A DNA stretch of 64,000 bases from a virus. The translations under genes and the position numbers were made by a program. The notes below the pieces were generated by a model that did no database searches, had not been told where the DNA came from, and saw nothing but the letters and a program-made list of their open reading frames with translations. Shown here one piece after another: positions 22,273-47,132 of the stretch; the first letter of the stretch is position 1, and each line of letters begins with the position of its first letter. Location: positions 54,466 through 118,465 of the IMG/VR virus record IMGVR_UViG_3300014050_000004. One strand, given 5' to 3'.

Positions 22273-24768
22273 TCACTTGTTTCCGTTGTTCCAGAGGCAA
22301 ATCTTGATAGCCTCAACATAATCAGCGGCTTCCCCATTAGCAACCATCTTGAGCGCCTTCTCATGTGGATCCATCTCTTCTGGTTCCTCTGGGATAGAAG
22401 CCTCTGAGACAACTTCGCCGAAATAAACCATGTTTGGCAATCTTCGAAGCATCTCAAACAACCTTGAGGTTGGGGTTTCACCTTCTGAGAAGTTAAGAGT
22501 CCCAAATTCGAGACCTTCGCAGTAGTTCTGAAGCTCTCTTTGAGGGATGATCCCATCAGTGAGCTTGCCTTCCACGTACAAACTGTCAATGAACTCGGCA
22601 ATTTTTTCTTTGCGAGCTCTGATCTTGTGCTCCTCGTATTCTCTTCTCAGCTTGTCATTTTCGGCCTTGAGAGACTTCAATTCCTCAAACATGGCTTCCG
22701 GATACCCGACTGGCTTGGCTTGAGACATAGACCCCATGCCACAGAACTCTTCGGTCTCGGAGAATTCCTCCTCTTCTGCAATCTGAGCCATAACGGAATC
22801 CACCAGAGCTTCGATGTCTTCCTCCGAGAAGTCTTCTCCTTCCTCTTCTCCTTCCTCTTCCTCCTCCATCACAGGGGATCTTTGCCCATAGGTGGAACCT
22901 TTACCGGTCTTTGACAGAGTGTCTTTGACTCTCTCTTTGTGCTCCAGGGAAGCCTCTTCTCCGGATCGCTGGCGAATGATTCTTACCTTGTCGCTTTCGG
23001 TTGCGTTTTCGAGGTCAACAGCCAGCTCCATGGTATCAGGATCTTCCTCAGATCGATCAGGGAACTCGGTAGGACCGTCGTCTCTGCCTCTTGGGTCTGT
23101 ACCATCAGAAACTTTAGCCTTCCTTGGGGTATCAGTCAGACCGTCAGCGTCTCCTTCAGCGAAATCTCCAATTGGACCTCCCTTAACCGGTGCTCTTTCG
23201 TCACCGGAGGACTGGTGAATGACCCGAGCAACTTTGTTGCCCTTTGTGCTTTCAAGGGGCACAGCAATGTCCTCATCATGGGGCTCTTCCTCCATGTCCT
23301 CCGAGACCTCTGTGGGACCACCGTCTCTACCATGAGGTTCCTTGCCTTCTGAAGTCCCAGCATCTCTGGCAAATCCCTCATTCCCGACATTGTATTGATC
23401 GGAATTTGTTGCTCTCATTCTGGCTTCGGGTTGGTCGGCCCAACGTGCCTCTTCATCCCCTCCGTCTTCCGTGTCTCTGCCAATGCTCGCTCTGCTTACC
23501 TCTTCTTCAGAGTTGCGAGCTGTGTTTTTTCTATCCTGGTCTTGTCTGCCAGAATCCTTGGAAACATTGGTTCTGCCGTCAGATTCACCCTTGCCAATTT
23601 TCTGCCTGTCACCGAAACTGTCATCCTTGGACCTTCCAGTCAGACCCCTTCCAGCCACGTCCTCCATTCTTTCTGGCTCATGGGTGCCGAACTTAACCTT
23701 GCCACCTTCTACTGTTTTATGAGAAACTCTCTCAGAAAACTCGTCCTCAATTTCATCGAGTTGGGACAGCAGGGAATCTACAAGGTTGTCAATGTCATCT
23801 TCGGAGAATTCCCCGTCTTCTTGTTCCATGTCCATGTCCATCTCACTCTCGACCTTTTTCTTCGGCTTGCTCTTCGCTCTGAGCTTGTGAGACTTTGCCT
23901 TAGGCTTAGGCTCTGCGGGGACTTCCTCAAACACCTCTTCAACAACCTGAACTTCGTGTCCGTGAGCTCCTTTGGCTGTTTTGCGTTCTGTCCTCTCCTC
24001 GTACTGGTCGTCTGGAAGCATGGTTTCCATGTTAGCTGTGGTCTGGGCGGATTCTGAAGCTTCAGATCCTTCTCGCCCCATTTTCTTTTTCATTTCAAGA
24101 AAGTTTTGGTAAGGGTTTTCTGGGGCGGAGCTGTCCGCCTCGGGAATTGTTTCTTCTGGAGATACATCTGTCTCTTGCTGTGTTTCCTGGTTTTCCTTGA
24201 GTTCCGACAAAGACGACGAGATGTCTCCCCTTATCAACTCAAGTTTCTCTCTCAGAGTCTCCAAAGGTCCTTTATCGGCCACCAAAGAAGGTCCTAATTC
24301 TTTGTCAAATAACTGATCAGGAGTCAAGTTTGTGGCAAAGTTGAACACTCCTTCTTCTTCTGAGAAGGAGAAAGGTTCCAGCCCTTTAACGGCTGGGGGA
24401 GCAGCTCCAAGTAAGGCCAAATGTCTGGCGCTCCATTGACCTTTGTGAGGGTTGATGCCCGACTCAGGCGAGTAGAAGGATATAGAAACTTTTTTGTAGT
24501 GGCCATTTTTCACCAGATCTTTAGCAGTATCCGTGAAATCTACATCGGCGTAGAGGTCATCTCCCCTTCTTTCAAAACCTTTGATCCACCCATATGAGGG
24601 TATACCGTCACTGTCACCAGAATGACCTATGACTAAAGGTGCTTCGTGAACATCAGGGTCGTAGGAATCAACAACCTCTTGCAGATCTTCACGAGAAAAG
24701 TGTCTTTCTACCCCATTGGCAGAAGTTTGGGGGCCTGACTTAAATACATGCAAACGTTTTGTAAACAC
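22273..24768 (-). CDS. Prohead protease (Mu gp32/I-like) fused to a long acidic scaffold
   Basis: APLVIGH...YGWIK...YKKVSISFY...RHLALLGAAPPAVKGL; followed by ~690 acidic aa with internal repeats and a coiled coil. Confidence 0.85.
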   Translation of the reverse strand: MFTKRLHVFKSGPQTSANGVERHFSREDLQEVVDSYDPDVHEAPLVIGHSGDSDGIPSYGWIKGFERRGDDLYADVDFTDTAKDLVKNGHYKKVSISFYSPESGINPHKGQWSARHLALLGAAPPAVKGLEPFSFSEEEGVFNFATNLTPDQLFDKELGPSLVADKGPLETLREKLELIRGDISSSLSELKENQETQQETDVSPEETIPEADSSAPENPYQNFLEMKKKMGREGSEASESAQTTANMETMLPDDQYEERTERKTAKGAHGHEVQVVEEVFEEVPAEPKPKAKSHKLRAKSKPKKKVESEMDMDMEQEDGEFSEDDIDNLVDSLLSQLDEIEDEFSERVSHKTVEGGKVKFGTHEPERMEDVAGRGLTGRSKDDSFGDRQKIGKGESDGRTNVSKDSGRQDQDRKNTARNSEEEVSRASIGRDTEDGGDEEARWADQPEARMRATNSDQYNVGNEGFARDAGTSEGKEPHGRDGGPTEVSEDMEEEPHDEDIAVPLESTKGNKVARVIHQSSGDERAPVKGGPIGDFAEGDADGLTDTPRKAKVSDGTDPRGRDDGPTEFPDRSEEDPDTMELAVDLENATESDKVRIIRQRSGEEASLEHKERVKDTLSKTGKGSTYGQRSPVMEEEEEGEEEGEDFSEEDIEALVDSVMAQIAEEEEFSETEEFCGMGSMSQAKPVGYPEAMFEELKSLKAENDKLRREYEEHKIRARKEKIAEFIDSLYVEGKLTDGIIPQRELQNYCEGLEFGTLNFSEGETPTSRLFEMLRRLPNMVYFGEVVSEASIPEEPEEMDPHEKALKMVANGEAADYVEAIKICLWNNGNK

Positions 24769-24793
24769 TTTTTACATCATAGCGATAGTATTT

Positions 24794-24800
24794 TTTACCC
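24794..24800 (-). promoter_or_regulatory. GGGTAWR putative late-promoter element
   Basis: GGGTAAA, 25 nt upstream of ATG 24768. Confidence 0.5.
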
Positions 24801-24809
24801 TTATCTCAG

Positions 24810-26240
24810 TCACTCTTCTTCAACAGGAGCTTCTGACTCTGACTCTGTTTCTTCAGCTCCGAAGATGGAATCGTAAAGGTCTTGTTCTTCTTGGGGGATG
24901 TCGTTCTGTGCCTCTTCCCCTACTTCTGACTCATCCCCGAATATGGACTTGTAAAGGTCTTCCCCTTCACCCACTCCGGAAACTTCCTCCTCCCCACTAA
25001 TTTTGTCAGGTTCAATCTCAACTTCCTCCTCAAGCTCAACCCTGAAGTGCCTTTCTATCCACTCTTTCTTGGGTTTGAAGCCAGAGTTTATCATGACAGA
25101 AACATCCGACATGGAGAGATTGGATTCCTCGATCCTAAACTCTCTTTTCAAGGTGGGAGCAACCACATCAGCACCGTAGTTCAGATCTACAATCCAGCGG
25201 ACAAGAGTCCGGGTTAGAAGCTGAGAAGTGATCTCGGATATCTCAGAAGCTTTAACAACTCTTACAACGTTTGCAACCTGAGAAGAAGCTCGAGATCCAG
25301 CCTCTGCCTGGCCAGCTTCATTCTCACCGCATATGAGTAGGCTGATTTCCTTATCAATGTAATCGATCAAGTTTTTGAACACGTCTGGAGAGCCCGTTGG
25401 GTTGATGGAATCCAGAGTGAAACCTTCGGGGAGAACTAGGGATGTTTCCTGGGACAAGTTAGATATGTGGTTCCAAATCTTGTCAACTTCTTCCGGGGAA
25501 GCACTGAGAGGAGCAGTTGCTACGGTCGTTGGGGTAGCGTATCGGTCTCCATACAGAACGTATGACTCGATTGCCCTCCTTCTGAATTTCACAAGAGGGT
25601 AGAGTATTCTTCCTAATCCCGATCCGTACGGATCCCCATTGTGGAAGACCCAGTGCCTGTTAACAATGAATTTTCTTGCAGGTAGCTCAACACCCTCAAA
25701 CATTCGGTTGAAGGTTAGGCATCTCATCGTAAAACCAGTTTGAGACTCTTGGCTTTCTTGAAAGACGAATCTCCTTTGGTCTCTGACGCGAATGTCATAG
25801 GGAACGACTCCCCTCTTCGATTTCTTCCACATTACCTCTGCGACGCTGTATCCCATGATCGCCGCTTCGCACAAACCTTTGTATAGTTCATCTATGGGCA
25901 GCTCTTCTAGAACTTCAGCAACGAAATCCCTGATGGCCAAGTCGCCTGGTTTCTGACTGTATTCCTCAACATACCAAGGTCTAGAGGTTATTTCTTGAAC
26001 AAGTTTTGCAAAGGAAGATTGAACGTGTTCGTCAAAAAACAACCTTTGATAAACTGACAGGGCTCTGTTTCCACCCTTTGCAATCAGCAGATCATCGCTT
26101 GGTCTGACTATGGTGTTTCCTGACCCTGTAAAAGGGGAGGAGCTACCGAACATGTAAATGCTCGATAGATTATACGGGTCCGATACGTAAGAGGCTATCT
26201 CTCCGGAAGGAACTGGTACTGTCTTGAATCTTTGGGGCAC
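24810..26240 (-). CDS. Portal protein (DUF935/Mu gp29-like)
   Basis: GYSVAEVMW...NPYG-like DPYGSGLGRILY...FVLYGDRYATP...IDYIDKEISLLICGEN...GSRASSQV. Confidence 0.9.
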   Translation of the reverse strand: MPQRFKTVPVPSGEIASYVSDPYNLSSIYMFGSSSPFTGSGNTIVRPSDDLLIAKGGNRALSVYQRLFFDEHVQSSFAKLVQEITSRPWYVEEYSQKPGDLAIRDFVAEVLEELPIDELYKGLCEAAIMGYSVAEVMWKKSKRGVVPYDIRVRDQRRFVFQESQESQTGFTMRCLTFNRMFEGVELPARKFIVNRHWVFHNGDPYGSGLGRILYPLVKFRRRAIESYVLYGDRYATPTTVATAPLSASPEEVDKIWNHISNLSQETSLVLPEGFTLDSINPTGSPDVFKNLIDYIDKEISLLICGENEAGQAEAGSRASSQVANVVRVVKASEISEITSQLLTRTLVRWIVDLNYGADVVAPTLKREFRIEESNLSMSDVSVMINSGFKPKKEWIERHFRVELEEEVEIEPDKISGEEEVSGVGEGEDLYKSIFGDESEVGEEAQNDIPQEEQDLYDSIFGAEETESESEAPVEEE

Positions 26241-26940: not shown

Positions 26941-29900
26941 TCAGAAGGTATTGTTTGACAAGCCTTGAGAATTCAGCTCTTTGCTCATTTGTCCGACGGA
27001 CACTCTGATCTGTTCAACTTCCATTCTCTCCAAAGTTGGAGCGGGAACATCAAACACCTTGACCATGACAACACCGTTCTCCAGGGTCTCTGGAGTGTTG
27101 ATCCTGTCGTCGCATATCACTTGGAATGCGTCAGAAGGTCTGGCTCCAAACAAAGCCCCAGCTCTCCAAAGTTGGCTCAGAACACTGTTACCAATGCTCA
27201 CAATCTGGTTGTAGACCAGGCCGAATCCGTCCACAATGGAGAAAATCTGGCTGTCATATGCGTTCCTAAGAGAACCGTATACAACGTTTTGAATGACCCT
27301 GGTGTTAACAAATTGGAACTTCCTTTGGTTCTCGTCCATCTTGTTGATGCGAGTTCTTCCGCCCCAAATGAACACTGCCGTGTTCGGGTAGCCAGGTAGA
27401 GTTCTAACAGCGTTGCAACCGTCTGGGTTCAACAGGTTTTGCTGAGCAGAATTGATTGGGATCTGTGTTCCTACAGCGTCTGCAAGCTGGTACTTGACAC
27501 CGGCAGGTGGGAACTGGAACCCTTCTGCTCTGTATCGCCTGAGCGCTACTCCAGCAACGTAAGGTGAGGGTGGAATGAATTGGTTTGAGGCATTCAGAAC
27601 GTAAGGACCGTAGAAGGCAATGAAACCGAAAGCGTTAAAGTAACGCTGGCTGTCTTCGTAAAGTCTATTGTCGTTGTCTACACCAGCTTCCACAAACTCA
27701 GCTTGGGGTTCACCATTGAACCCAACTCCTCTGAGAGCGTTGTCCATTATTTCTGTGGAAGTAATGGCGTCAAATCTCCAAAGGTTGCTTGGAGGAGTTT
27801 GCTCGGAGGTAAGAGAGATTTCAACCTGAGCACCTAGGCATACCTTGGAAGCAGAAGTGAGGTCTCCTCCAAGAGCTTGGGCTTTGATGACAGTCCAATT
27901 ATAGTTAGAACCGTCGAAAGTAACCACGATTCTGTCTCCTTGAACAACGTCTGTGGTGCCATCAGGGGCTTTACCGTCGTTGTCCACAATTTCGAAATAG
28001 ACGCCTTCGAGCTTGGAAATCAGGTTCTGAATGTCGGCTCCAGTATCACCAATATCGAGCAATTGGTTGGAGTAGACAGACAGGGTTCCACTCAAGGCAC
28101 CGGCACCGTCAGGATCATAGTTACCACCATAGATGGGGTCAATCACAGGTACGATGTAAGCTTCCGTGCTGAACTTTTGCTCAACTGTTGGTGTGCAGAT
28201 GAAGTTTTCAACGGCTGAAGTGGTGCTTCCGGCCTCAACCAGAGATAGCTCAGGCAACCAGTTGGCCTCAGCAGTTTCTCCATAAGGGAAGATCTGATTT
28301 TTGCCAACTACTACAGAGCTATTATTGAGATAGAGGGAAACTCCAACTCCCGCTGTTGCGTTGTTATTTGACTTTGTTGCTTCTTCTACAATGGTTCCGC
28401 TGGCCAAACCATACTTCCTACCCCTAATCATGGCAAAGGTGGAAACTTCGGCCATAGAAGTTGCGGTCAGACTTCCCCCTGTGACAGAAGAGTAAAGAAT
28501 TGTTGGATTGCTGGAAAGAGTTCCAGACACAAACTCAACATAGTTCCCTGCCAAGTAGTTAGAGAACGAGGAGGCAAGAAGGATGGAGTCTTCATCAAGG
28601 ACCTTCACATAGTAAGGGTGAAGACCGTTTACAGAAGAAGCTTTGAACAATACCTGGCTATCCTTGGTTACAGGCTGAGTGAAGAACACCTTTTGACCGT
28701 TTTGCAAGGTGTGGGAGACGCAATTGAACTTCCAGTATTGCTTAGAACCCAAGGTGTAGGCTTCCATGTACAGGTCGCTGTTTGGATCCAAGATCGTTCT
28801 GCTTACAAAACCAAGGCGGAAATCCTTAGTAGAGTCCTGAAGAGTGCCTGGCAAGTGAACTGTGTTCACGAACTGAGAAGAACCAGAGATGTTTTGGATC
28901 AAGTTGGACTCTTGACCGTTGATATCAATCTGATTCATCAGATCCCAAGCTGGACTTCCGTAGGAGGCAAGGACAGTCGTGCCTGCCGGGGATCCCACGC
29001 TGTAGGCTCCCATGGGCAGAGAGGCCATCAGATCGCTACCACCTGCAGCAACAACTTCAGCATACACCGCAGAAGCTTCAGCAGCTGTCTCAGTTATGTA
29101 GACAATTTGAGAAGATCCGTTGGAAGGATACGGTCCGTAAAGAGCTTGATTGAAGGGTGGTGCAACAATGTAAGCGACATCTCCAAGCGCAGTAAAGTCT
29201 GCACCGGCTGCTTCCAAAGTGACTTCCATGATCTGGAACTCAGCAGGCCAAACGTCAGAAGAGGAAATCTGGAATTGACCGATGCTGGAAGCCATGGTGG
29301 TCGTGACTGTGAACACACCATTGTCAATGGCCCCAACCTTCTCATCCGCAGCTACTTCCTCCACTGATTGCTGTACAGCAACCTTAGGATCTGAACCGCT
29401 GATGATTGGTTGGTACCTCAGTTTGTCGTAAGTAACCCCAACTCCGGTCCATTCGTAGATTGCGTTATCTACGAGATACTTAAGCCCGGTAACAAGGTCA
29501 GCTGCAGGTTTGTGAGGAGCGAACTCCTTGTACTTGTTCAAGTCCGTTACAAAGAAGGGACCGGGATCAGCCAGAGCTATCCACTTGTAGTTATTGCTTT
29601 GGCAATGAGCAGCAGCAGCAGCTCCAATGGCGGATCTACCTGCGGCATCAAACTGAGCGTATGCAGTTGGTGTGATCAAATACCCCTGATTCTGTTGGCC
29701 GTCGAAGGCAGTGTTAATGCACTGGATGTAGTCCTGATATACCCTTTCCAGATTGTTTGACATGCCCACGATGTTCTGAACATCGTAGGAATTGTTCATG
29801 ATTACACTGTATGAACCGACAACATTCTGCTGGTTAACCACAGATACCGAGCCACCGTAAGAGGAAGCTGCAATAGTGATGAAACCGCTTTCAGAGGTTG

Positions 29901-30558
29901 AAGTAGGATCCAGATCAACCACGAGACCGAAATCTCTAACGTAGATAGAGCTGCTAACGCTTGGGTTGCTTTCGATAGCTGCCGCAATTGCTGTTACGAC
30001 GGCTTTCGAAATCTTTCTGTTATTGACAGCGTCCCCAGCGATGTAATCCACTGGGATGGTAACCGGGACACCAAGCCATTCTCCTGAAGAGCTGTAACCA
30101 GTGGACCCATCTCCCGCTACAAGCTTCAGACCATTCAGGATAAGCTGTGCATAAACAATGTCACCAGCTTCGAAGTTTGTTGGCAATCCGGAGTTGTTGA
30201 GTTTGGTCCCGGAAGGCAGGAATTCGATTTCGGAGATTTGGTTAGGTGTACCAACTCTAACGACTCTCAAATCTCCGACTTGAGCATTTTGGTAGAAGGA
30301 ATTAACGCAGTTGTAGCTGAGAAGAGGGATGCGGGACTCAGGTACCACACCACCGACCAAAGCCTTATAGTCCTGCAGAGAGGTGATTGCTACAGGAGTA
30401 TTGAAAGGAAACACTGTGACAGGCACAGATTCTTCTGCTTCCACAAGCATATACACAGTGCTAAAGGAAGAAATACCAGCAGAAGCTATGTTTCCAACTG
30501 TTTCATTGATGTAGGTTCCGGGAGCTCCAGGTGTAGCTCCAAAGGAGAAAGTTGCCAT
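26941..30558 (-). CDS. Contractile tail sheath protein (1205 aa)
   Basis: N-terminal APGTYINE; C-terminal IPPSPYVAG...FPPAG...LNPDGCNAVR...IWGGRT...FVNTRVI. Confidence 0.92.
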   Translation of the reverse strand: MATFSFGATPGAPGTYINETVGNIASAGISSFSTVYMLVEAEESVPVTVFPFNTPVAITSLQDYKALVGGVVPESRIPLLSYNCVNSFYQNAQVGDLRVVRVGTPNQISEIEFLPSGTKLNNSGLPTNFEAGDIVYAQLILNGLKLVAGDGSTGYSSSGEWLGVPVTIPVDYIAGDAVNNRKISKAVVTAIAAAIESNPSVSSSIYVRDFGLVVDLDPTSTSESGFITIAASSYGGSVSVVNQQNVVGSYSVIMNNSYDVQNIVGMSNNLERVYQDYIQCINTAFDGQQNQGYLITPTAYAQFDAAGRSAIGAAAAAHCQSNNYKWIALADPGPFFVTDLNKYKEFAPHKPAADLVTGLKYLVDNAIYEWTGVGVTYDKLRYQPIISGSDPKVAVQQSVEEVAADEKVGAIDNGVFTVTTTMASSIGQFQISSSDVWPAEFQIMEVTLEAAGADFTALGDVAYIVAPPFNQALYGPYPSNGSSQIVYITETAAEASAVYAEVVAAGGSDLMASLPMGAYSVGSPAGTTVLASYGSPAWDLMNQIDINGQESNLIQNISGSSQFVNTVHLPGTLQDSTKDFRLGFVSRTILDPNSDLYMEAYTLGSKQYWKFNCVSHTLQNGQKVFFTQPVTKDSQVLFKASSVNGLHPYYVKVLDEDSILLASSFSNYLAGNYVEFVSGTLSSNPTILYSSVTGGSLTATSMAEVSTFAMIRGRKYGLASGTIVEEATKSNNNATAGVGVSLYLNNSSVVVGKNQIFPYGETAEANWLPELSLVEAGSTTSAVENFICTPTVEQKFSTEAYIVPVIDPIYGGNYDPDGAGALSGTLSVYSNQLLDIGDTGADIQNLISKLEGVYFEIVDNDGKAPDGTTDVVQGDRIVVTFDGSNYNWTVIKAQALGGDLTSASKVCLGAQVEISLTSEQTPPSNLWRFDAITSTEIMDNALRGVGFNGEPQAEFVEAGVDNDNRLYEDSQRYFNAFGFIAFYGPYVLNASNQFIPPSPYVAGVALRRYRAEGFQFPPAGVKYQLADAVGTQIPINSAQQNLLNPDGCNAVRTLPGYPNTAVFIWGGRTRINKMDENQRKFQFVNTRVIQNVVYGSLRNAYDSQIFSIVDGFGLVYNQIVSIGNSVLSQLWRAGALFGARPSDAFQVICDDRINTPETLENGVVMVKVFDVPAPTLERMEVEQIRVSVGQMSKELNSQGLSNNTF

Positions 30559-32924: not shown

Positions 32925-35798
32925 TTAAATCAAACCTTGTGAAATGGCTCTGTATCTTGTTGTTAGTTTGTCTATAGCACCGATCTCAGATAGCTCCATC
33001 ATTGAAAACTCTTCTCCATTCGGTTCCTCATTACCTTTCGGGTTTGAAGGAGAGACGGTGGATTCCCTTGGGGATTTGCGAATCTTGCTATCTATTGCTA
33101 CGGAGGAGAAATAAGATCTGCTCAAGGGCAGTTCAGGGATCCCGACACGACTGTGAAACAAGCTCCAAGTGTACATGTGTGCAATCTGAAACAGAACAGC
33201 GAACTGTTGGGAGTATTTCTCAGGGGTCATGAACCACACTTCATCGTGGATGCTAATGATGAATCTGCATGGGATTTTGTATTCCTCTGACAGCCAGTGA
33301 ACTGCAGTCAGCATGATCGATAAGATCTCGGCGCCAGAAGATTGAATCGTCCAGTTAACTCTACCCGTCTTAAAGTCGTCTCCAACAGCAGAAGGTCTCA
33401 TGGCTGTGGAGATCTTTGTGCCCAGACAGGGCAGGGTTGGGACTTTGCTTCTCATGGCAATTTCTTCCATGTAGTTGAAACAACCGGAATCCGTTCCCCC
33501 TTCATATAACCCGCCTTGTAACTGGCCTTTCTTTGAGGAAAGAGCTTTGAAAGCGAAGTTTTTGACCTGAGAAGGAGACTTTTCTGGGTAGATCTTTCGG
33601 ATGTAAGTTTGAATGGCTCGGGCACCTCCCCCATACAATACAGTGAATCCCACAATCTTCGCAAGATCCCTTGCCTTTGCGATTTCCTTATACCTCTCCT
33701 TAGAGATGGGGGTCAGAGTTGACTTGTCCTCAGACAGTTCGCAAACCCCTTTGTGAGAATCCCAAACAATGCCTTGATAGAGCTCGGGCATGATGGCTCT
33801 GGCCAGAGCAGTGTGAGGGTCTGTCCCAAGCTCTTTCGCCCCGCTCAGAACGTTATATCCGAAGGGGGAGCAACCAATGTGTCCCCCTTCCCACTTGTCA
33901 CTGTAGATGGCTGCGATATTTAGCTCTTGAGCGTCAAAGTCAGCCCCGACAATCTTCCAGCCTTCTGGAGCAGTGATCCTTGACTTAAGCTCAGTCCCAA
34001 TCCGGTTCGGCTTTGTGGAACACATTGTAACCATCAAGGCTTCCACGGTTCTTCGAGTCACTGTTCCATGGCATAGAATCTCTGGCAAGGTAACAAGAGC
34101 ATCTTTGCCATAGGGGTTCTCGCTCTTGAGGAAAATCCGATCCATGACCCTGCTTCTCACAGATGTCCAATAGGAGGTGGCTGAAGAGATTTCAAGTGCT
34201 CTTTTTGCTTCAGGAAGGTCGCTGCTGAGCCTTCCGACATTCATGTCTTCGATGAAATCTTTGGTAAGCAAACCTCCCACATTTTCCCCTGTACCTTTGG
34301 GGTGAGGGACTTTGGAGATTGAGCCTTCTTCTTCGTTCCAGTAGCACCACCCAGAACCTTCCACAAACTGCAAAGGTTGGCCTTCCCACTTGAGCTTGAG
34401 TAGCAGGTGTGCAATCCTGCTCTTGACCCCAATGGGGGTGTTAGGGTCCTTGGAGAAAGGGCGTATCCAGTTGGGCACATTGGCATATTTGCCTTTGGTG
34501 GAGGCCACTGTCCAATCAAGTTGTGAAAACCAGGGATCTTTCTTCACCCATTCGTCTCTCTCGGATTCTGTTGAAAGTTCCTGCCACTCTTCATAGCAAG
34601 AGTATAGCAAGTCTTTGCAAATCCGACTCATCTCCTCGTTGTGCTCTTGGAAAACTCTCTCGGTGTTTGCAATCCAATCCGTCCATTCGTCGATGAGAGG
34701 TACGACAGAACCATTCAAGTAGTAGTGGCCACAAAGAGCCACGGGAGAAGGAGTGCTGTCTCTGTATTTGGGCCACAAGGCTTGAAAGAGTTCTGCCGTA
34801 TATAGAGCGTCCTTGACAGCGTAGTCAACGGCTTTGCCAAGCATTGAAGTAATCTGGGAGATATGTGTCGCTCTTACGAACACATCTCTCACAGCTTTGT
34901 CTTCAGACCCAAGAGGTTGAGCACTGCTGTCCCCAAAGAATTTCTTAACCTCGTATACGTGGAAGTTGTAGCATTGAACAAGGCTATTGGTTGCTCCCTT
35001 CTCTAGCCACTTAGGTGCGTATCTGAGCTTTCTCTTTTCCTCTTCGGTCAAGTTTTCTGGGTCCTTGGCAGCCAAAACGTAGAGCCACCTTTGTCCGGAA
35101 GCCAATCCTGAAACTCCGACATGGGCAGACAAGGTGTCAAAATAGAAGTTTTCTGGTCTGGTATTGTTAAGATTGTATCCTTCCTGAGCCCTCACTCTGT
35201 CGTACGACACATTGTGTCCAACGATGAACCGGTCCTTGCCAACTGGAATCAAGTCAAATTGGTCCCATTCTTCTTCTGGCAGGGAGGGATTGATGAGCTC
35301 AGAGGCCAACCATATATAAGCTGCTTTCGAAGACAGAGCCGTTCCAATTACCGGAAACGCTCCACCTTGAACAAAAGTTTCGGTGTCAAAAGTAAATGCC
35401 TCTTCAGTAGGATAGTCAACTTGTTCCACCTCAAACTCTTCCCCGTTCCAGAAGTAACGAGTCCACCCAGGGTTGAACTGAATGTCCTTTTCTTGGGGAA
35501 CAGGAGGCAACTTTGATGTGGAAAATTCCTCAGCCAACTCCAGGTACCTACCAATCTGCAAGTTGGCGATGGAATGAAAGTGTTCTTCTAAGTTGTGACC
35601 CTTGAGATCAGGAAGCGGCAAAGGCCCGTCATACAGGTTGTTCGGGTAATCTACAGGAACTGAAACACCAAACCTATTGAGCAAGCTCTCAGCTCTCTTT
35701 TGGTCACGAGGTGTCATGGCCTTCGGTTTCTCGGGGCCGAAAATCTTAGAGTGGATCTCCTCAGAGACCACCGGATAACCGAGTTCGTTGAGTTTCAT
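32925..35798 (-). CDS. Family A DNA polymerase, mitochondrial Pol-gamma-like
   Basis: Exo I FDTET, exo II VGHNVSYDR, FDTLSAHVGVSGL, DPWFSQLDW, KVPHPKGTGENVG, GTVTRRTVE, NRIGTELKSRITAPEGWKIVGADFDAQEL (motif A), RDLAKIVGFTVLYGGG (B), GRVNWTIQSSG...RFIISIHDEV (C). Confidence 0.93.
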   Translation of the reverse strand: MKLNELGYPVVSEEIHSKIFGPEKPKAMTPRDQKRAESLLNRFGVSVPVDYPNNLYDGPLPLPDLKGHNLEEHFHSIANLQIGRYLELAEEFSTSKLPPVPQEKDIQFNPGWTRYFWNGEEFEVEQVDYPTEEAFTFDTETFVQGGAFPVIGTALSSKAAYIWLASELINPSLPEEEWDQFDLIPVGKDRFIVGHNVSYDRVRAQEGYNLNNTRPENFYFDTLSAHVGVSGLASGQRWLYVLAAKDPENLTEEEKRKLRYAPKWLEKGATNSLVQCYNFHVYEVKKFFGDSSAQPLGSEDKAVRDVFVRATHISQITSMLGKAVDYAVKDALYTAELFQALWPKYRDSTPSPVALCGHYYLNGSVVPLIDEWTDWIANTERVFQEHNEEMSRICKDLLYSCYEEWQELSTESERDEWVKKDPWFSQLDWTVASTKGKYANVPNWIRPFSKDPNTPIGVKSRIAHLLLKLKWEGQPLQFVEGSGWCYWNEEEGSISKVPHPKGTGENVGGLLTKDFIEDMNVGRLSSDLPEAKRALEISSATSYWTSVRSRVMDRIFLKSENPYGKDALVTLPEILCHGTVTRRTVEALMVTMCSTKPNRIGTELKSRITAPEGWKIVGADFDAQELNIAAIYSDKWEGGHIGCSPFGYNVLSGAKELGTDPHTALARAIMPELYQGIVWDSHKGVCELSEDKSTLTPISKERYKEIAKARDLAKIVGFTVLYGGGARAIQTYIRKIYPEKSPSQVKNFAFKALSSKKGQLQGGLYEGGTDSGCFNYMEEIAMRSKVPTLPCLGTKISTAMRPSAVGDDFKTGRVNWTIQSSGAEILSIMLTAVHWLSEEYKIPCRFIISIHDEVWFMTPEKYSQQFAVLFQIAHMYTWSLFHSRVGIPELPLSRSYFSSVAIDSKIRKSPRESTVSPSNPKGNEEPNGEEFSMMELSEIGAIDKLTTRYRAISQGLI

Positions 35799-35833
35799 TT
35801 TGTTTTGTTTGCGTGTTGTTAATATGAACCTAA

Positions 35834-36634
35834 CTATTCTGAGTAACTAAACAATTTCAGATCAAAAGCTCGGACCCCACTACTGTCAAACACATTTTCC
35901 TTGTGTCTCTTGTACAATTCAAAGGCATCGTAAACGTTAGAAAACTGAATGGGTCTCTCTGCTGGTTCCTCTGCCCACAGAGAAATCTCTTTCAGATCCA
36001 AGGACGGCTCAATGTCCCAAGCCTCGTGCCTGCTCCCATATAGCAGGGGCAGAGCATCATTCCTCCACCAATCAGACATTGACTGAATGCACGCCGCCCA
36101 AGTCTCAGGGTCTGTAATGTGTGTGTTGAACTCTGAACGGATGGAAGAGATGTACTGTTTGCCCCTCTTCACTACGACCAATGCCGATGCTGGAACCTCC
36201 TTGAGATACAATGACTCATCTTCAAAAACAAGTTTCTCGTATACCAGAGGAAACAAGATGGCGTGGCACATGAGCTTCACGTCATCCGAAGAAACACACA
36301 TGTGTCTTAGAATTGACTCAAAGATCGCGATTGTTGAGGCGATCATCAATTCACTCTCGTTCAGGTCTGGTTGAATCTCAGTTTTTTGCCCTTCTAGCAG
36401 CTTGTTTAACGTAATGACCTCCATCTCCAATTTGCGAGCTTGGCGATTCGCTTCCCTCTCTACTCTAGATTTGTAAATGTCGGACTGAACCAGAAGCTTG
36501 TCAAACTTGATTTCAATCTTTTCCAGTTCCGCATCCAATGCTTCTAGGCAAATCTTCAAGTTGGATACTTTCTTCTTGAGGGATCCAACAGATGTTCTCA
36601 GAGTCTCTGTTGCATATACAAGATTGTCTGTCAT
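35834..36634 (-). CDS. Hypothetical protein with N-terminal coiled coil
   Basis: 266-aa ORF on the coding strand. Confidence 0.7.
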   Translation of the reverse strand: MTDNLVYATETLRTSVGSLKKKVSNLKICLEALDAELEKIEIKFDKLLVQSDIYKSRVEREANRQARKLEMEVITLNKLLEGQKTEIQPDLNESELMIASTIAIFESILRHMCVSSDDVKLMCHAILFPLVYEKLVFEDESLYLKEVPASALVVVKRGKQYISSIRSEFNTHITDPETWAACIQSMSDWWRNDALPLLYGSRHEAWDIEPSLDLKEISLWAEEPAERPIQFSNVYDAFELYKRHKENVFDSSGVRAFDLKLFSYSE

Positions 36635-36642
36635 GTTGATTG

Positions 36643-37218
36643 TTACATTTGTTTGATCGACGCTTTCATCTCGTCGAGGTCTTGATCAATGATCTTTATG
36701 TTAAAGGAGTAAGTCTTCTCCGGGTCTGACTTGAGGTGGAAAGTTCCTTCAAAAAAGTCTCCGTTGTCTGAGCTCAAAAAGTTGTTGCTTGGGGTGGGGG
36801 GAGAGCACAGGGCTATGTCACCTTCAAATTCGGGGTAGGACTCTTCTATCACAGAAACAAGCTTTCTGTAAACTGCTGAAGCAGCTGCCAACTCTCCCTC
36901 ATTGTTAATCTGAGCTAGAAGTCCATTGTCTGTTGCCCGAAGTTCGCAAGCAACCCCATTATCAAGATATATGACAATTAAGGCTCCTTCGTCATGGCTC
37001 TCAAATCTTGCCTCCTGGGCTTCAAACTCACAATCGTCAGGCTCTGTGCCCTCGAAGTTGAATTCTATAAGGTCGTAAAAAGAAGATCTTATGGTTTCGG
37101 CGTCGGGTCCCCCCAAGTAATTGGCTATAGCATTGAACAGTTTAGGTTGAGCAAGCAACCTTTCTACAGGATACGCAATAATCATAGTTCTCTCCTTGAT
37201 GACAGTATAGCCCCCCAA
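36643..37218 (-). CDS. Hypothetical acidic protein
   Basis: 191-aa ORF; true start may be MIIAYP. GGGTAAA at 37263-37269. Confidence 0.65.
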   Translation of the reverse strand: MGGYTVIKERTMIIAYPVERLLAQPKLFNAIANYLGGPDAETIRSSFYDLIEFNFEGTEPDDCEFEAQEARFESHDEGALIVIYLDNGVACELRATDNGLLAQINNEGELAAASAVYRKLVSVIEESYPEFEGDIALCSPPTPSNNFLSSDNGDFFEGTFHLKSDPEKTYSFNIKIIDQDLDEMKASIKQM

Positions 37219-37323: not shown

Positions 37324-39336
37324 TCACGATAGGTCCTCGACCATGGCAACCTTGATACCTTTGCTACCTGGCCTGCCTTGCTTTGCAGTCAAGTCCAGTT
37401 TCAAAGGCTTTTTGCGTTTGGAAGCCCAATTTACAGTGTAAGAACCTTCTCCGAAGTAAACAATCTTCGAACCTTCTGGGAGAGCAAGCTTACCTTTGCT
37501 CGTTGTTTTCACAAGGTCTGACCCGCACAGTACCATGGCTCTTAGCTCTTCGTTGTTTTCAAACACAACAAGGTACTTCAGCTCTAGAATCTCAGAGTCT
37601 TTCTTTGCCAATAGAATCGGGCAGTAGTTTGTTGACACAGGACCTTTGTAATTTGGGGCCACCTTTTTCAGGAACCCTGCTTCGTTTAAGAGCACCAGTT
37701 TGTCCTTGGATTCCAGGACCAGAGCTCCCCGAGGCCCTTTGGCTTGTTCCACAAGCCCTTTCTTCACATCCACCTTCAGGAACCTAGGCTTAGGGGCCGC
37801 TGCCACCCTCCTGGTTGGGGAGCCGGGTGTATAGGTCCCTCCGTGCGAAGGGGGCTCCACGAGGGGGCTCCTACGAGCCTCTCCGTGCCTCTTTCCGAGC
37901 TCGGTCAGCTCCTGGGTCATGTACGAGCTACGGCAGGTGGTGCCTTCTGCCTCGTCGCTTGCCAATTTCTCAAGCTCTTTGATTCTCGTTTGAAGTTCAT
38001 TGTCCTCCAGGATCAAATCCTTTTCGTCGAGGTTGGTCAACTGCCGGAGTCTCATGTCAAGGATTGACTCCGCCTGGTCATCCGTGAACATGAACGGCTT
38101 TGACATAAGGGAGCTCTTAGCTTGAGCTTTATCCTTGGACTCCCGAATTTTCCCAATCACTAAGTCCATCATTCCGATGGCCTTCAGTAAACCTTGGACG
38201 ATCGAAAGACGAGCTTCCTTGGTGCTGAGTTCTTTCACAAACTTGGCTTGAAGCCGGTTCAGCCTCCAATGAACCCATTTCTGTACAATCTCTACAGGGG
38301 AAAGCTCAACTGGCTTATTGCCATCAATGACTAATGTTTTAGCTGAGAACTTGAGTTCGAGATCGGTGAAGGAGTAGAGCTGGTTTTTGAGGGTGTCAGC
38401 ATTGATCCCTGCTTTCGCTACCACTTGAACACGGTCGCCAGATAGATCGGAGAGATCATTAACCTCGGCTACTCCTTCAATCCTGCCTTTTTCAAGTTCA
38501 GCCTTGATTTGCTCTCCGATTTTCTCCGGGTTTGTTCCCGGTGGCAGGTTTGTAAAAGTCAAGCACGGCCTTTCTTTTCCTTTGCCATGCCGAACCACAG
38601 AGGTTTCCAACTTTGCCATGCACCGAATGCTTCCGGAGCCTGTTTCTTTGTACTGCTTGAGTTGATCATCCTCAATGATCTGGGTGCCAGTGGGGAAGTC
38701 AGGAATGAGGATATCTCGTGCTTTGCTTAGGTTGTCTTTGTAAGCTTTCTCCGAAGCAGTGTGTTTACAAAGGAGCTTGGTAGCTTCGACGATAGACCTG
38801 AGATTGTGAGGGGCAATCTTACAGGCATAACCAACTCCAATTCCCTCCTGGCCGTTGAGAAGAACCAAGGGGAACTTGACATTCAACTCCATAGGTTCTT
38901 GCAGGGAACCATCGTAGTTTGGAACTGTCTCCCAAGTGTCTGAATCGTCAAGCACACCCTCCCAAAGTAAGGGAGAGGACTTGACTTCCGTATACCTGGC
39001 AGCAGCACATTGAGAAGTTGAGTCTCCGAAGTTCCCGTGGCCGTTAATCAATGGGTAGTTGTTGTTCCAAGGTGCTGCCAGAGTGACAATGGCACCGTAA
39101 GCTGAACCGTGAGGGCTGTACTTACCCAGCACTTCTCCGTCAAGCCTGGCACTTTTCATGAAGCGTCCGTCAGGCTTCAAGTTCAGCATCTTAATTGCTG
39201 TGAAGATTCTCCTTGCAATTGGCTTGCATCCATCCGTGTACCGAGGAATAGCCCTGCCAACTATGACACTCAAGGAGTAGGCTAGGTAGTCTTCCTTTAC
39301 AAGGGATGTAAGGTTGGTTGGGATGTAGTTACTCAT
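37324..39336 (-). CDS. Type IIA topoisomerase subunit A (GyrA/ParC-like)
   Basis: DGCKPIARR, KSARLDGEVLGKYSPHG, GHGNFG, catalytic AAARYTEVK, LLNGQEGIGVG, ILDMRLRQLTNL; short C-terminal domain. Confidence 0.93.
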   Translation of the reverse strand: MSNYIPTNLTSLVKEDYLAYSLSVIVGRAIPRYTDGCKPIARRIFTAIKMLNLKPDGRFMKSARLDGEVLGKYSPHGSAYGAIVTLAAPWNNNYPLINGHGNFGDSTSQCAAARYTEVKSSPLLWEGVLDDSDTWETVPNYDGSLQEPMELNVKFPLVLLNGQEGIGVGYACKIAPHNLRSIVEATKLLCKHTASEKAYKDNLSKARDILIPDFPTGTQIIEDDQLKQYKETGSGSIRCMAKLETSVVRHGKGKERPCLTFTNLPPGTNPEKIGEQIKAELEKGRIEGVAEVNDLSDLSGDRVQVVAKAGINADTLKNQLYSFTDLELKFSAKTLVIDGNKPVELSPVEIVQKWVHWRLNRLQAKFVKELSTKEARLSIVQGLLKAIGMMDLVIGKIRESKDKAQAKSSLMSKPFMFTDDQAESILDMRLRQLTNLDEKDLILEDNELQTRIKELEKLASDEAEGTTCRSSYMTQELTELGKRHGEARRSPLVEPPSHGGTYTPGSPTRRVAAAPKPRFLKVDVKKGLVEQAKGPRGALVLESKDKLVLLNEAGFLKKVAPNYKGPVSTNYCPILLAKKDSEILELKYLVVFENNEELRAMVLCGSDLVKTTSKGKLALPEGSKIVYFGEGSYTVNWASKRKKPLKLDLTAKQGRPGSKGIKVAMVEDLS

Positions 39337-42678: not shown

Positions 42679-43725
42679 TCAACTTCCTATGACCTCTTGG
42701 GCCAAGAGCAGTAAAGAATTACAAGAGTTCTTCCATGTCCAACTTTCACTCTTGACCAAAGCTCTTTTCACCTTGGCTTTTGTTTCTTCCTTGTTCTCCA
42801 CACACTTTAGGATTTCCTTTGAAAGGTCTTTGTAAGAGCTGGAATCTGCTATGTAACCACAATCTCCAACTATCTCTGGAAGGGAAGCGCACGGAGCTAC
42901 AACTACTGGAACTCCGAGAGACATGGCTTCAATAACAGGCAATCCCATGCCTTCATACTTGCTTGGGCAGACGTACATCTCAGACTGTGTGATCAATTCA
43001 CACAGCTCTTGATCTGACAAAGAATCATAGAACATAACTCTCTCTTCAAGTTTCATCCCTCTGATTGCTTCCAGCTCTTTAACAGAAGGGGGTTTGAACG
43101 AAGATACCCTAAGGTCCAAGTCATGGTCTTTCAAGGTCTTCAAAAGAGCAGTGAAGTTTTTACTCTTTTCATACCGGTTACCCCAATACACCATGTAGGG
43201 CTTAGGAGGACTCTTCGTGGTAAACTTAGTAAGTTTGCCGCCGGAGAATTTGCTGCCGGAGTACAGACATTTTGTGTTCGCTCCCGGAATTATCTCCAAC
43301 ACTTGTTTTTGTATGAAAGGAGTTGTACAAGCAAAGGTATTTGTTAACTTCGAGAGACCTCTTAGGGTCAGGCTGATGGAAAGGCTGTATTCTTCCCTTC
43401 CGGGGATGTCCACGTCATGTACCACAGGTAGCACTTTTTCACAGACAGGAAACATTGTAAAGTGGTTCCCGATTTGAATGTCAAACGGACCTAGATCTTC
43501 GTAAACTTTCTTAAAGTTGGAGGTTTCAATCTTACCGTTGAAACGAGTGTACCCACCCTCGGGTGGGTTCCATTTATGAAACTTTGGCCTCCTTAACAGT
43601 AGATCGTCCACAACCACGCACACTTCATGGTTTTCCCTTCTTAGGTGGGATATCATTTGTCTATCCCATTCATTGATTCCGCATCCACCAAATCCCACAT
43701 TTCCGGAATCCCACAAAATTCTCAT
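42679..43725 (-). CDS. GT-B (family 4-like) glycosyltransferase
   Basis: PSKYEGMGLPVIEAMSLGVPVV...SLPEIVGDCG; KSKNFTALL. Confidence 0.9.
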   Translation of the reverse strand: MRILWDSGNVGFGGCGINEWDRQMISHLRRENHEVCVVVDDLLLRRPKFHKWNPPEGGYTRFNGKIETSNFKKVYEDLGPFDIQIGNHFTMFPVCEKVLPVVHDVDIPGREEYSLSISLTLRGLSKLTNTFACTTPFIQKQVLEIIPGANTKCLYSGSKFSGGKLTKFTTKSPPKPYMVYWGNRYEKSKNFTALLKTLKDHDLDLRVSSFKPPSVKELEAIRGMKLEERVMFYDSLSDQELCELITQSEMYVCPSKYEGMGLPVIEAMSLGVPVVVAPCASLPEIVGDCGYIADSSSYKDLSKEILKCVENKEETKAKVKRALVKSESWTWKNSCNSLLLLAQEVIGS

Positions 43726-44015
43726 AGTACAATCTCCTCAACTTTTCTCTTGAGAATCCTCTCCCAGTACGACTTAGTCTTAGGCATAACTTCTATTGTA
43801 GGTATACTATGAACCCATTCAGAATATTTTATCAACTCTTTGGACAAATGAGTTACAATGACCACAGTGTTTAATAATAGTAAGTGTTCAGTCTCAAATG
43901 GGTAGTCCCAAATGAGTTGATATTCTGGCAATACCAAAGAAATCGTCTGTGCTTGGGCTATCTCTTTGAGGAAGATGCTATTTGTCCCCGATCTGAAGAC
44001 GGTGCAGTGTTTCAT
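43722..44015 (-). CDS. Hypothetical protein in the modification cluster
   Basis: ATGA overlaps on both sides. Confidence 0.6.
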   Translation of the reverse strand: MKHCTVFRSGTNSIFLKEIAQAQTISLVLPEYQLIWDYPFETEHLLLLNTVVIVTHLSKELIKYSEWVHSIPTIEVMPKTKSYWERILKRKVEEIVL

Positions 44016-45028
44016 AATTCTTCAGAAAAGTGGTGGAATGACCCCGTCTCAAGAAAGTGGCTCATCTTTTGATTGTCTATTTTCGCTCCTCGAGGGGCCC
44101 AGATGTCCCCCACAACCTCTTTTCTCATTTGGTGCAACACCTCCCAGTCAATCCCATGCCACCCTGAACTCTCTGCTTTCGCAATTTGCTCTGACATTCT
44201 GTCCAAGTAAAAACCGCAGTATCTGCCCTTCTTCACTCGAAAAAGTTTTTTGTATGAGCACCCCACGGTTTCTAGAGAAAAAGCGTCAAACTGACTGGAA
44301 TGTCCGGACCATCGACCTTTCGCCTCCTTGATAAGATCCTGAGAAAAACCTTCTAACCAATCGTACTCATCTGCGGTTAATCTCTGGTTAACCCAGTCAT
44401 CTTTTCCGGCGGCGAAGCACAAACCGTTTCTATGAGATTTGGACCCAGAGTAGTCGCTGAGCATCAGGGTTCTGGGCTCTATGGGAACACCGCAAGTGTG
44501 CTTATAAGTCTGAAGCACAAACCAGGCCGAGTACCTTCCCATCTTCCACCAGTCATCTATAATAACACGCCACAATCGGTCAAAGTTCTCTTCGGGAGAG
44601 TCTTGGCACAAGTCCGAAAATCTCTCGTGTTGAGTCCTCTCCCCAACAAAGTCATGGTAGCTTGAGTACATAGAGGCTATGTGTCCTTTGCTCCATTTTG
44701 TGTCTGTATCGTAGTAGATACGTGAGTAGTTGTCATTATTCCACTGCTCAAATCTCTCCACGGAAGCCAGCTCTTGGTCCGGGAATTCGTTCTTCATAAT
44801 GAACGCCGTGGGCAAATTATAAGTGTGGTAGAGCCATGCAAAAAAGTAACGTTCTTCAATGTTGTATTCGTACCTTTCATTGAGATAGTTAATGCCCCAG
44901 AGAGGACAATCAACATCCCCGATCTCTGTACAGGCTGCCCACCATTGCAAGAAACCTTCTCTTCTGTTTCGCGGCAGTCTGAAATCCAGGGAGGGAGCAT
45001 TCGTTTTTGCAGACAGTTTAGTCATCAT
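44012..45028 (-). CDS. Amino acid:DNA transferase-like protein (aGPT-Pplase2/ADDT)
   Basis: FAWLYHTYNLPTA...FPD...YDTDTKWSKGH...MGRYSAWFVLQTYKHTCGVPIEPRTLMLSDYSGSKSHRNGLCFA...ETVGCSYKKLFR...RYCGFYLDRMSEQI. Confidence 0.75.
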   Translation of the reverse strand: MMTKLSAKTNAPSLDFRLPRNRREGFLQWWAACTEIGDVDCPLWGINYLNERYEYNIEERYFFAWLYHTYNLPTAFIMKNEFPDQELASVERFEQWNNDNYSRIYYDTDTKWSKGHIASMYSSYHDFVGERTQHERFSDLCQDSPEENFDRLWRVIIDDWWKMGRYSAWFVLQTYKHTCGVPIEPRTLMLSDYSGSKSHRNGLCFAAGKDDWVNQRLTADEYDWLEGFSQDLIKEAKGRWSGHSSQFDAFSLETVGCSYKKLFRVKKGRYCGFYLDRMSEQIAKAESSGWHGIDWEVLHQMRKEVVGDIWAPRGAKIDNQKMSHFLETGSFHHFSEEL

Positions 45029-45067
45029 GTGAACTTCTCACAGCTTTTGAACAAGGTTACAGGATTC

Positions 45068-45074
45068 GGGTAAA
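45068..45074 (+). promoter_or_regulatory. GGGTAWR putative late-promoter element (PTP gene)
   Basis: GGGTAAA, 30 nt upstream of GTG 45105. Confidence 0.4.
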
Positions 45075-45104
45075 GGTATGGATACAGGTCAAGAAGAAGC
45101 TCTT

Positions 45105-45512
45105 GTGAAGGTACTTTTTATATGCACTGGTTGCATTAATCGAAGCGCGACAGCCCACGTTATTCTTGCCACCCTTGGCAAAGACAAGCATGAAGTTCAA
45201 AGTTGCGGAACAGGCAAAGTTGCACCCTTAGGGTGCCGCATACCCCGGAAGATGAGGGATGTCTTGACAGAAATGGGATACGACCCCGCTCATCACAGAT
45301 CCCAGGGCATCAATTTGGAACTTTTGTCTTGGGCAGACAAAATTATCTGCATGGGGAATGTCCATGAGAAGTTCATTAAGAAACACTTTCCTGAGATGCA
45401 CAATAAAGTTGAAAATTGGAGGATCAAGGATCCACACTTTGCCAAGGGAGATGCGTTGCATAGGACGGTCGCTAAAGAAATTGAGCAGTGCGTGAAGACT
45501 CAATTTCTCTGA
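45105..45512 (+). CDS. Low-molecular-weight protein phosphatase (LMW-PTP/ArsC fold)
   Basis: VLFICTGCINRS (CX5RS), SCGT, HRSQ, IICM, IKDP. GTG 45105 or ATG 45078 start. Confidence 0.85.
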   Translation: MKVLFICTGCINRSATAHVILATLGKDKHEVQSCGTGKVAPLGCRIPRKMRDVLTEMGYDPAHHRSQGINLELLSWADKIICMGNVHEKFIKKHFPEMHNKVENWRIKDPHFAKGDALHRTVAKEIEQCVKTQFL

Positions 45513-46428: not shown

Positions 46429-47084
46429 GGTATCAGCTCCTTAATTTGGGTTAGAATTACTTCAGAGTCTTCGCTATAAATCACACCTGGTACACATCTC
46501 TCAGGGTTCCCTAAGCCTGATCGTATAGCTATGTCTTTGGTTGAGGTTAGAAAGAACCCATTCTTGACATTGACTTTCCATAGCGGCCTCTTACCGTTTC
46601 TGTAGAATCTGATTGAACCGTTCTTCCTAAGCTCCAGGACAGCTATAGAAGAATCCTTGAATTTCATCATTGGTTCTTCCCCAGCCTCCAAAGCTCTGAG
46701 TATGAGCTCGGAATCATTCTTCCCCGTTAAAGGGTAGCCATACTTAGACCAAGAGTCTGGCGAGTTTTGGTCAACTACACCGTTATGGACTATAGAGATC
46801 TTCTCTCCAAACAGAGGTTGGTTGTACTGCAAGTCAGAGGTTGAGTAGCGGCAATGGCCAATCAAGGATAAGGATTGCCCAGAAACACAGCTTTCAAGGT
46901 CGAAATCTGAAAGAAAAGTCTCAGCACTCTCTGGCTTTTTAATTGTTGTTATGGCATTGTCCTTGAAGAAGGAAACACCGAATGCATGTTTACCTCTTAT
47001 TTGTGACTCAAGCGCAATCCTCCTAAGGATTATCAGATCTTGTTCAGAGGTTTCCTCAAGTTGACAGCCGAAGATGGCACACAT
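46422..47084 (-). CDS. Class II glutamine amidotransferase (Ntn hydrolase)
   Basis: Start moved to MCAIFG (N-terminal Cys nucleophile); RGKHAFG, GHCRYST, YNQP, HNGVV, DSE. Confidence 0.88.
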   Translation of the reverse strand: MCAIFGCQLEETSEQDLIILRRIALESQIRGKHAFGVSFFKDNAITTIKKPESAETFLSDFDLESCVSGQSLSLIGHCRYSTSDLQYNQPLFGEKISIVHNGVVDQNSPDSWSKYGYPLTGKNDSELILRALEAGEEPMMKFKDSSIAVLELRKNGSIRFYRNGKRPLWKVNVKNGFFLTSTKDIAIRSGLGNPERCVPGVIYSEDSEVILTQIKELIPC

Positions 47085-47132
47085 ATTGTAATGAGGGTGT
47101 TGGTTGGTTCGTTCATTCAAAACTCTGGAACT

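Follow-up and report, generated by a model that had tools for sequence, protein, structure and literature searches.

Does an uncultured virus carry a true counterpart of the mitochondrial DNA polymerase gamma (PolG) and, if so, what does the enzyme do for the virus and how does it bear on the origin of PolG? These questions are raised by a 64,000-nt stretch of IMG/VR record IMGVR_UViG_3300014050_000004 (positions 54,466 to 118,465), hereafter the window, which is the 3' 64 kb of a linear 118,465-bp viral contig with a CheckV completeness of 53%. Feature coordinates refer to the window unless given as contig positions. At 32925–35798 on the minus strand lies an open reading frame (ORF) with an ATG start, 957 codons and zero internal stops. 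Based on the ORF, Pfam and PDB matches and a structural model, this polG-like gene (P0001) encodes a single-subunit DNA polymerase of 957 aa that belongs to family A and, within it, to the Pol gamma subfamily. We put at roughly 0.85 the probability that it is the single-subunit, Pol gamma-type replicative polymerase of a cyanomyovirus resembling Synechococcus phage S-CBWM1, with an active proofreading exonuclease, a PolG-type spacer and canonical palm, fingers and thumb.

A full-length relative of mitochondrial DNA polymerase gamma

The exonuclease domain of mitochondrial DNA polymerase (PF18136, DNApol_Exo) matched residues 61–345 of the protein at 2.6e-63, scoring 214 bits against a cut-off of 26.7 and covering positions 6–282 of the 282-position profile. 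The family A polymerase profile (PF00476) matched at 2.5e-11 (43.6 bits; cut-off 34.3). When all PDB sequences were searched with HMMER, the 14 best distinct sequences were all Pol gamma, headed by a yeast Mip1 chain (9c51; 3e-111) and including human POLG at 6e-107 (human chains, ~1e-107 to 3e-104). The initial annotation of this locus had described a colinear match running beyond generic PolA motifs, and this description was borne out: PolG chains scored between 3e-111 and ~1e-104 compared to only 2e-3 for the first non-PolG polymerase, with colinear similarity in three or four segments spanning nearly the entire protein. All ten motif strings quoted there are present in the translation (GHNVSYDR, DTLSAHVGVSGL, PSPVALCG, DPWFSQLDW, KVPHPKGTGENVG, GTVTRRTVE, IGTELKSRITAPEGWKIVGADFDAQEL, GGTDSGCFN, GRVNWTIQSS and RFIISIHDEV), and the human POLG strings given alongside them stand opposite in the HMMER alignment.

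At the sequence level, the similarity to PolG lies far above chance and far above generic family A likeness. The domains, motifs, exonuclease residues, predicted architecture and tree position of the protein are all those of the Pol gamma subfamily (CDD cd08641; PF18136 plus PF00476). These results confirm that the gene is a genuine full-length relative of mitochondrial DNA polymerase gamma.

Predicted structure

An AlphaFold2 model, computed from an 88-sequence alignment, had a mean predicted local distance difference test score (pLDDT) of 95.6 and a predicted template modelling (TM) score of 0.93. In a Foldseek search of the PDB, the top 35 matches were all human, mouse or yeast Pol gamma (E down to 1.6e-61, TM 0.82), followed by Klenow at TM 0.38. 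A comparison with POLG, suggested for the human protein in the initial annotation, gave a VIA-align Z score of 45.5 and a root mean square deviation of 2.7 Å over 843 residues (model residues 2–948), with the spacer aligned. Alignments of the model to POLG covered 843–866 residues (within model residues 1–948) at Z 38–45 and that to Mip1 covered 869 residues at Z 30.9, while all other family A polymerases reached only Z ~16.5–16.6. Because the model superposes on POLG in both Foldseek and VIA-align, its exonuclease, spacer and polymerase parts are all predicted to have PolG architecture.

Two stretches of the human spacer, of ~90 and ~115 residues (~466–558 and ~601–716), are unmatched in the sequence alignment to the viral protein, and the accessory-interacting determinant (AID) of human POLG falls within them. 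The domain of the PolG2-like accessory subunit, a protein of class II aaRS type (HGTP_anticodon), had zero matches on the contig, itself a fragment, and the AID plus PolG2 combination of the metazoan-type PolG holoenzyme was not found here. Yeast Mip1 likewise has neither AID nor PolG2; therefore, this feature does not define the subfamily. Given the nearly unbroken sequence alignment to Mip1, the gaps opposite the human spacer and the lack of a PolG2-like gene on the contig, the enzyme resembles a single-subunit Mip1 minus its long C-terminal extension (1240 aa in the deposited chain compared to 957 aa here).

Catalytic residues and the dideoxynucleotide position

Residue conservation was judged in the 88-sequence family alignment. 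The 3'–5' proofreading exonuclease domain (residues 61–345; 34764–35618, minus strand), delimited by PF18136 and residue conservation, contains Exo I D138/E140, Exo II D200 and Exo III Y326/D330, all of them invariant. Also invariant are the catalytic D620 and steric-gate E625 of polymerase motif A (residues 614–626, KIVGADFDAQELN; 33921–33959, minus strand), which stands opposite human LVGADVDSQEL. In motif B (residues 710–725, RDLAKIVGFTVLYGGG; 33624–33671, minus strand), the conserved R710, K714 and Y722 are nearly invariant, as are the columns of motif C (H851-D852-E853; 33240–33248, minus strand), opposite human RFCISIHDEV. Compared structurally with human and mouse POLG (PDB 8d33, 9ic3 and others), the modelled exonuclease, spacer and polymerase parts align and the catalytic residues are identical.

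At least 70% of diverse representatives of the family have a gap opposite a clade-specific insert of 37 residues in the fingers (residues 668–704; 33687–33797, minus strand), which is modelled as a small three-stranded sheet (strands 677–680, 684–688 and 695–697). The insert sets the enzyme apart from Mip1, as does residue F718 of motif B, where Mip1 has tyrosine. F718 occupies the position of human Y951, T7 Y526 and Klenow F762. Extraction of motif B from 142 sequences and 120 close relatives revealed phenylalanine here in 120/120 of the close relatives, in S-CBWM1 and in phages A-HIS1/2, and tyrosine in phage S-TIM5, in all labelled eukaryotic sequences and in 65/65 of the long (>1000 aa) sequences with a readable motif. 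Established mutagenesis work on the T7, Klenow, Taq and human PolG enzymes links phenylalanine at this position to strong discrimination against dideoxynucleotides (ddNTPs). Because the viral enzyme has phenylalanine at the Y951-equivalent position, it is predicted to show PolI-like ddNTP discrimination, unlike mitochondrial PolG; the tyrosine that is the signature of mitochondrial sensitivity to ddNTPs and nucleoside reverse-transcriptase inhibitors is replaced. The same split between phenylalanine and tyrosine was noted in the paper on the Microcystis siphovirus Mic1 (PMC7156551).

The virus and its known relatives

All-ORF blastp against S-CBWM1 gave matches for 100 ORFs, colinear (inverted) over the whole contig at 30–67% amino acid identity genome-wide; the virus is a separate lineage at the species or genus level. 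When 20 kb of the window were compared with phage genomes by megablast, there were no matches; kinship with S-CBWM1 is therefore visible at the protein level only, and the virus represents a distinct uncultured lineage. The contig is an uncultured S-CBWM1-like cyanomyovirus, a relative of Aokuangvirus. A tail sheath gene (26941–30558, minus strand; phrog_17610, 4.4e-44; 44.5% identity to S-CBWM1 gp167), together with the S-CBWM1 structural module, indicates a contractile tail, in agreement with the initial annotation, and a psbA fragment (contig 1716–1922) fits a cyanobacterial host.

The contig and S-CBWM1 have in common a string of four genes that ends in polG. It is headed by a GyrA-like type IIA topoisomerase subunit (37324–39336, minus strand; PF00521, 1.5e-98; phrog_551), followed by a very acidic 191-aa ORF (36643–37218, minus strand; homologue of S-CBWM1 gp75) and, directly upstream of polG, a 266-aa ORF with an N-terminal coiled coil (35834–36634, minus strand; homologue of gp76). 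Linkage of the latter two to polG is kept in S-CBWM1 and in every IMG/VR relative with enough flank; searches of Pfam, PHROG and the ESM Atlas pointed to no function for either, and both could be replication accessory factors.

Because the record is a metagenome-assembled viral contig, the PolG similarity might in principle come from a eukaryotic contaminant or a chimeric assembly. However, the isolated phage S-CBWM1, which can be grown on Synechococcus CBW1002, and 35 independent IMG/VR contigs carry this gene among the same neighbours, and the guanine-plus-cytosine content of polG is that of its flanks, which makes an artefact of this kind extremely improbable.

PolG genes have been known in cyanophages since 2011, in the Acaryochloris siphoviruses A-HIS1/2 (Chan 2011) and, among cyanomyoviruses, in S-TIM5 (Sabehi 2012) and S-CBWM1 (Xu 2018) (PMC7156551), and a 'mitochondrial-like DNA polymerase' is used as the signature gene of the TIM5 group (PMC10087341). 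A tblastn search of 50,697 phage records recovered the polymerase from no more than 11, each of them a cyanophage: the match to S-CBWM1 was full-length at 56.7% identity, and those to the S-TIM5 group, Mic1 and A-HIS1/2 stood at 35%, 32% and 31%, respectively. The S-CBWM1 protein, gp77, is annotated as 'DNA polymerase gamma' (MG450654, Aokuangvirus; 953 aa compared to 957 aa here), and the two viruses are alike in gene order, whole-contig synteny, the motif B phenylalanine and the contractile-tail virion module. S-TIM5-like myoviruses, A-HIS1/2 and Mic1 belong to the same subfamily at 31–36% identity over ~95% of the length but to separate deep clades, and S-TIM5 and Mic1 retain the motif B tyrosine.

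Uncultured metagenomic relatives are closer than S-CBWM1, at up to 78% identity. A collection of 5.8 billion proteins yielded 456 matches at E ≤ 1e-10, and more than 120 metagenomic clusters are 64–78% identical to the window protein, many on contigs of 50–190 kb; hundreds of metagenomic relatives already bear the name 'DNA polymerase gamma 1', assigned automatically by the Joint Genome Institute. Close polG relatives were found at 35 IMG/VR loci. A scan of 185,579 prokaryote species genomes, which reaches close relatives only, revealed none. PolG in a myovirus is therefore not new, and the gene adds a member to a documented, annotated cyanophage group. The initial annotation had presented its occurrence in a contractile-tailed phage as novel, which does not hold, as the PolGs of S-TIM5 and S-CBWM1 are published and the contig is syntenic with S-CBWM1. 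Contractile tail, separate FEN-type exonuclease and modification genes are a context also present in the published S-CBWM1 genome.

Some close relatives have breaks in polG, which recur at two sites; the copy in the window is continuous. The IMG/VR locus L037 has a stop-rich insert of ~813 nt (L037:5074–5886) between polG residues 687 and 695, and the IMG/VR locus L041 has, between residues 490 and 496, a ~727-nt insert with a frame change (L041:4486–5212). Several proteins in the databases, among them the representatives P0123, P0126, P0127 and P0124, have an end that coincides precisely with one of these sites. The inserts look like introns and recall Mic1, whose polG is split by an intron (PMC7156551), though a search of the L037 and L041 genes against Rfam matched none of its intron families. 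An intein in L037 was rejected, its insert being full of stop codons.

Position in the PolG-like tree

An exhaustive HMMER search of 1.84 billion cluster representatives identified 1468 proteins at E ≤ 1e-3, of which 998 also passed the stricter cut-off of E ≤ 1e-10; named matches longer than ~1000 aa were fungal or insect PolG/Mip1. Trees were built with FastTree (142 rows) and with IQ-TREE under the LG+C20 posterior mean site frequency model (62 rows, 1000 ultrafast bootstraps), using two sequences, T7 gp5 and Klenow, as outgroup, and the two methods agreed. The branch that sets the PolG-like rows as a whole apart from these two sequences was supported at 93 in FastTree and 95 in IQ-TREE (Shimodaira–Hasegawa-like approximate likelihood ratio test). 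The window protein paired with S-CBWM1 (100/99) within an S-CBWM1-like clade, with S-TIM5 and A-HIS in other deep clades of ~850–1000-aa sequences. A placement with PolI, T7 or SPO1 enzymes, which the initial annotation had named as fatal to its proposal, was thus not observed, and the polG-like protein falls within one of the roughly six deep clades of PolG-like sequences, which are presumably viral.

Eukaryotic PolG formed a single tight group (100/99; 1000/1000 bootstraps) inside a 19-row group (96/100) that also holds seven environmental proteins of ~900 aa, one of them 1225 aa. These seven (P0151, P0197, P0161, P0155, P0236, P0156 and P0159; 884–1225 aa) are metagenomic and may be a true sister lineage of mitochondrial PolG, either viral or early-branching eukaryotic. 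P0156, P0197 and P0161, used as queries against IMG/VR, had no relatives there, and a metagenome scan with P0248 found only one weak fragment. Eukaryotes joined the seven proteins in 959/1000 bootstraps and the S-CBWM1-like clade in 0/1000. The sister position to PolG implied in the initial annotation accordingly went to the seven other proteins, and the S-CBWM1-like clade is not the phage-type clade closest to eukaryotic PolG. As for the suggestion that the locus bears on a phage origin of PolG, it does add one more branch to a large viral-type radiation, although not the branch nearest the mitochondrial enzymes.

Could the transfer have run the other way, with a phage capturing the gene from an opisthokont, in which case it would be silent on a phage origin of PolG? 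Phage PolGs have been noted as most like fungal PolG (PMC10201439), and the root of the PolG-like tree is unsettled: with outgroup branches of 4–5 substitutions per site, the trees do not fix the basal order. Against capture, however, the viral-type sequences (~850–1000 aa) comprise at least six deep clades with internal branches much longer than the whole eukaryotic clade; the eukaryotes are a single tight group (1000/1000) in the 19-row group and are nested with either outgroup rooting; and the known hosts of these phages are cyanobacteria, which offer no obvious transfer route. We therefore consider capture from a eukaryote unlikely. Rooting on T7 gp5 and Klenow together nests the eukaryotes among the viral-type clades, and we tentatively suggest, as a possibility well short of an even chance, that eukaryotic PolG arose inside a large and mostly uncharted radiation of viral PolGs, which numbers 998 clusters at 50% identity and comprises no fewer than six deep clades, that compact, accessory-free enzymes like the present one have the ancestral architecture, that the seven environmental proteins are its true viral sister lineage and that mitochondria recruited PolG independently of Twinkle and of their T7-like RNA polymerase.

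Replication partners and proposed role

The phage system classically taken as a model of the mitochondrial replisome is that of T7 (gp5 with thioredoxin and gp4), and gp5, like the putative replicase described here, is a proofreading family A polymerase in a tailed phage. The likeness is limited, with Z 16.6 and TM ~0.38 between the model and T7/PolI-type structures, and the gp4/Twinkle-type helicase-primase that accompanies the polymerase in T7-like and mitochondrial-type replisomes was not found. The initial annotation had proposed a search for such a partner, but neither a DnaB/Twinkle-type SF4 helicase (DnaB_C) nor a Toprim_2 primase was detected on the 118-kb contig in searches run with positive controls, and none of the gp4/Twinkle type is listed in the annotation of the complete S-CBWM1 genome either. 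The candidate partner is instead a D5/SF3-type primase-helicase outside the window (contig 23840–25819, minus strand), a homologue of S-CBWM1 gp136 ('putative DNA primase', 56% identity) with matches to phrog_25243 (4e-124) and DUF5906, Walker A (GKDAGLGKST) and Walker B motifs, and homologues in more than 100 metagenomic clusters at 58–83% identity. Its model (pLDDT 77) matched the SaPI5 primase-helicase, African swine fever virus PrimPol and poxvirus D5/E5 in Foldseek (1e-7 to 1e-5), on which grounds we class it as D5/SF3-type and not gp4/Twinkle-like.

A FEN-type 5'–3' exonuclease, of the kind involved in primer removal, is encoded separately from polG, as the initial annotation had noted (55236–56132, minus strand; PF02739, 1.1e-34, and PF01367, 5e-12; phrog_107); it has no S-CBWM1 counterpart at E 1e-8. 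A second one lies outside the window (contig 35496–36530, minus strand) and is a homologue of S-CBWM1 gp131. The contig also encodes a DnaQ-like exonuclease and an RNA-ligase-family nucleotidyltransferase. GyrB (PF00204) had no match anywhere on the 118-kb contig, no canonical single-stranded DNA-binding protein (SSB) was found on it, and the T7-like RNA polymerase family (PF00940) gave no match on the contig, but none in the control genomes either. Because the contig is fragmentary, the absence of a Twinkle-like helicase, GyrB and SSB is no proof. A lone GyrA was also reported for S-TIM5 (PMC4889955) and is annotated in S-CBWM1, and therefore seems common to PolG-type cyanomyoviruses.

Taken with these partner genes, the polG-like enzyme would copy the phage genome as a single subunit with its own proofreading, needing no PolG2-like accessory subunit, as with yeast Mip1. 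The D5/SF3-type protein would prime and unwind for it, one or two FEN-type exonucleases would remove primers, and the lone GyrA-like subunit and the DnaQ-like exonuclease may participate in genome copying.

Alternatively, the enzyme could be an accessory or repair polymerase, serving in gap filling, primer replacement or translesion synthesis on the modified DNA of the phage, while the host Pol III or an unseen phage polymerase replicates the genome. Bacterial family A enzymes are mostly repair enzymes (PMC4889955), the contig is incomplete and the DnaQ-like exonuclease is encoded separately, all of which leave room for such a role. Nonetheless, no other polymerase catalytic subunit is annotated in the complete S-CBWM1 genome, polG sits within a conserved replication string with a topoisomerase subunit, polG is present in the relatives without exception, the characterised enzymes nearest to it (PolG and Mip1) are processive replicases, and its proofreading domain has all catalytic residues. 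These points make a repair role improbable, and slightly more so than the capture scenario considered above.

A replicase role is the best supported, given the partner genes on the contig and the lack of any other polymerase catalytic subunit in S-CBWM1; among the contig ORFs scanned, no other polymerase-like protein turned up. There is direct support for family membership, for the presence of all catalytic residues, for conserved synteny and, through a model, for the predicted fold. Some points weigh on the other side: the fold has been predicted and not solved; the contig is fragmentary; the primase-helicase model is of moderate quality only (TM ~0.3, owing to multiple domains); and the ddNTP prediction is extrapolated from mutagenesis of other polymerases.

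Base-modification genes

The window also carries a DNA base-modification cluster on the minus strand (42679–51110), which had been recognised in the initial annotation and which we regard as context for polG and not as part of it. It comprises a GT1 glycosyltransferase (42679–43725), an amino acid:DNA transferase (PF18724; 44012–45028), a GATase_6 protein (46422–47201), an R2K ATP-grasp protein (47451–48194) and two tandem Tet/JBP dioxygenases (48187–49641 and 49620–51110). S-CBWM1 differs in having one Tet/JBP gene where the contig has two plus extra modification genes. The S-CBWM1 protein gp8, labelled 'SNF2 DNA repair protein', is a homologue of the dioxygenases at 43–57% identity, and its annotation therefore looks wrong.

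Implications

Metagenomes contain a far wider range of PolG-like polymerases than one would expect from the few published phages. S-CBWM1-like phages pair PolG with a D5/SF3-type primase-helicase, so that the members of the mitochondrial 'T7-like trio' were not found as a set here. Should compact enzymes prove to be ancestral, the ancestral architecture would be one with no AID, no C-terminal extension and a D5/SF3 rather than a Twinkle-type helicase. To our knowledge, no phage PolG has been biochemically characterised. Residue F718 yields a clear biochemical prediction, and the compact, confidently modelled 957-aa enzyme would be a reasonable candidate for the biochemistry of phage PolG.

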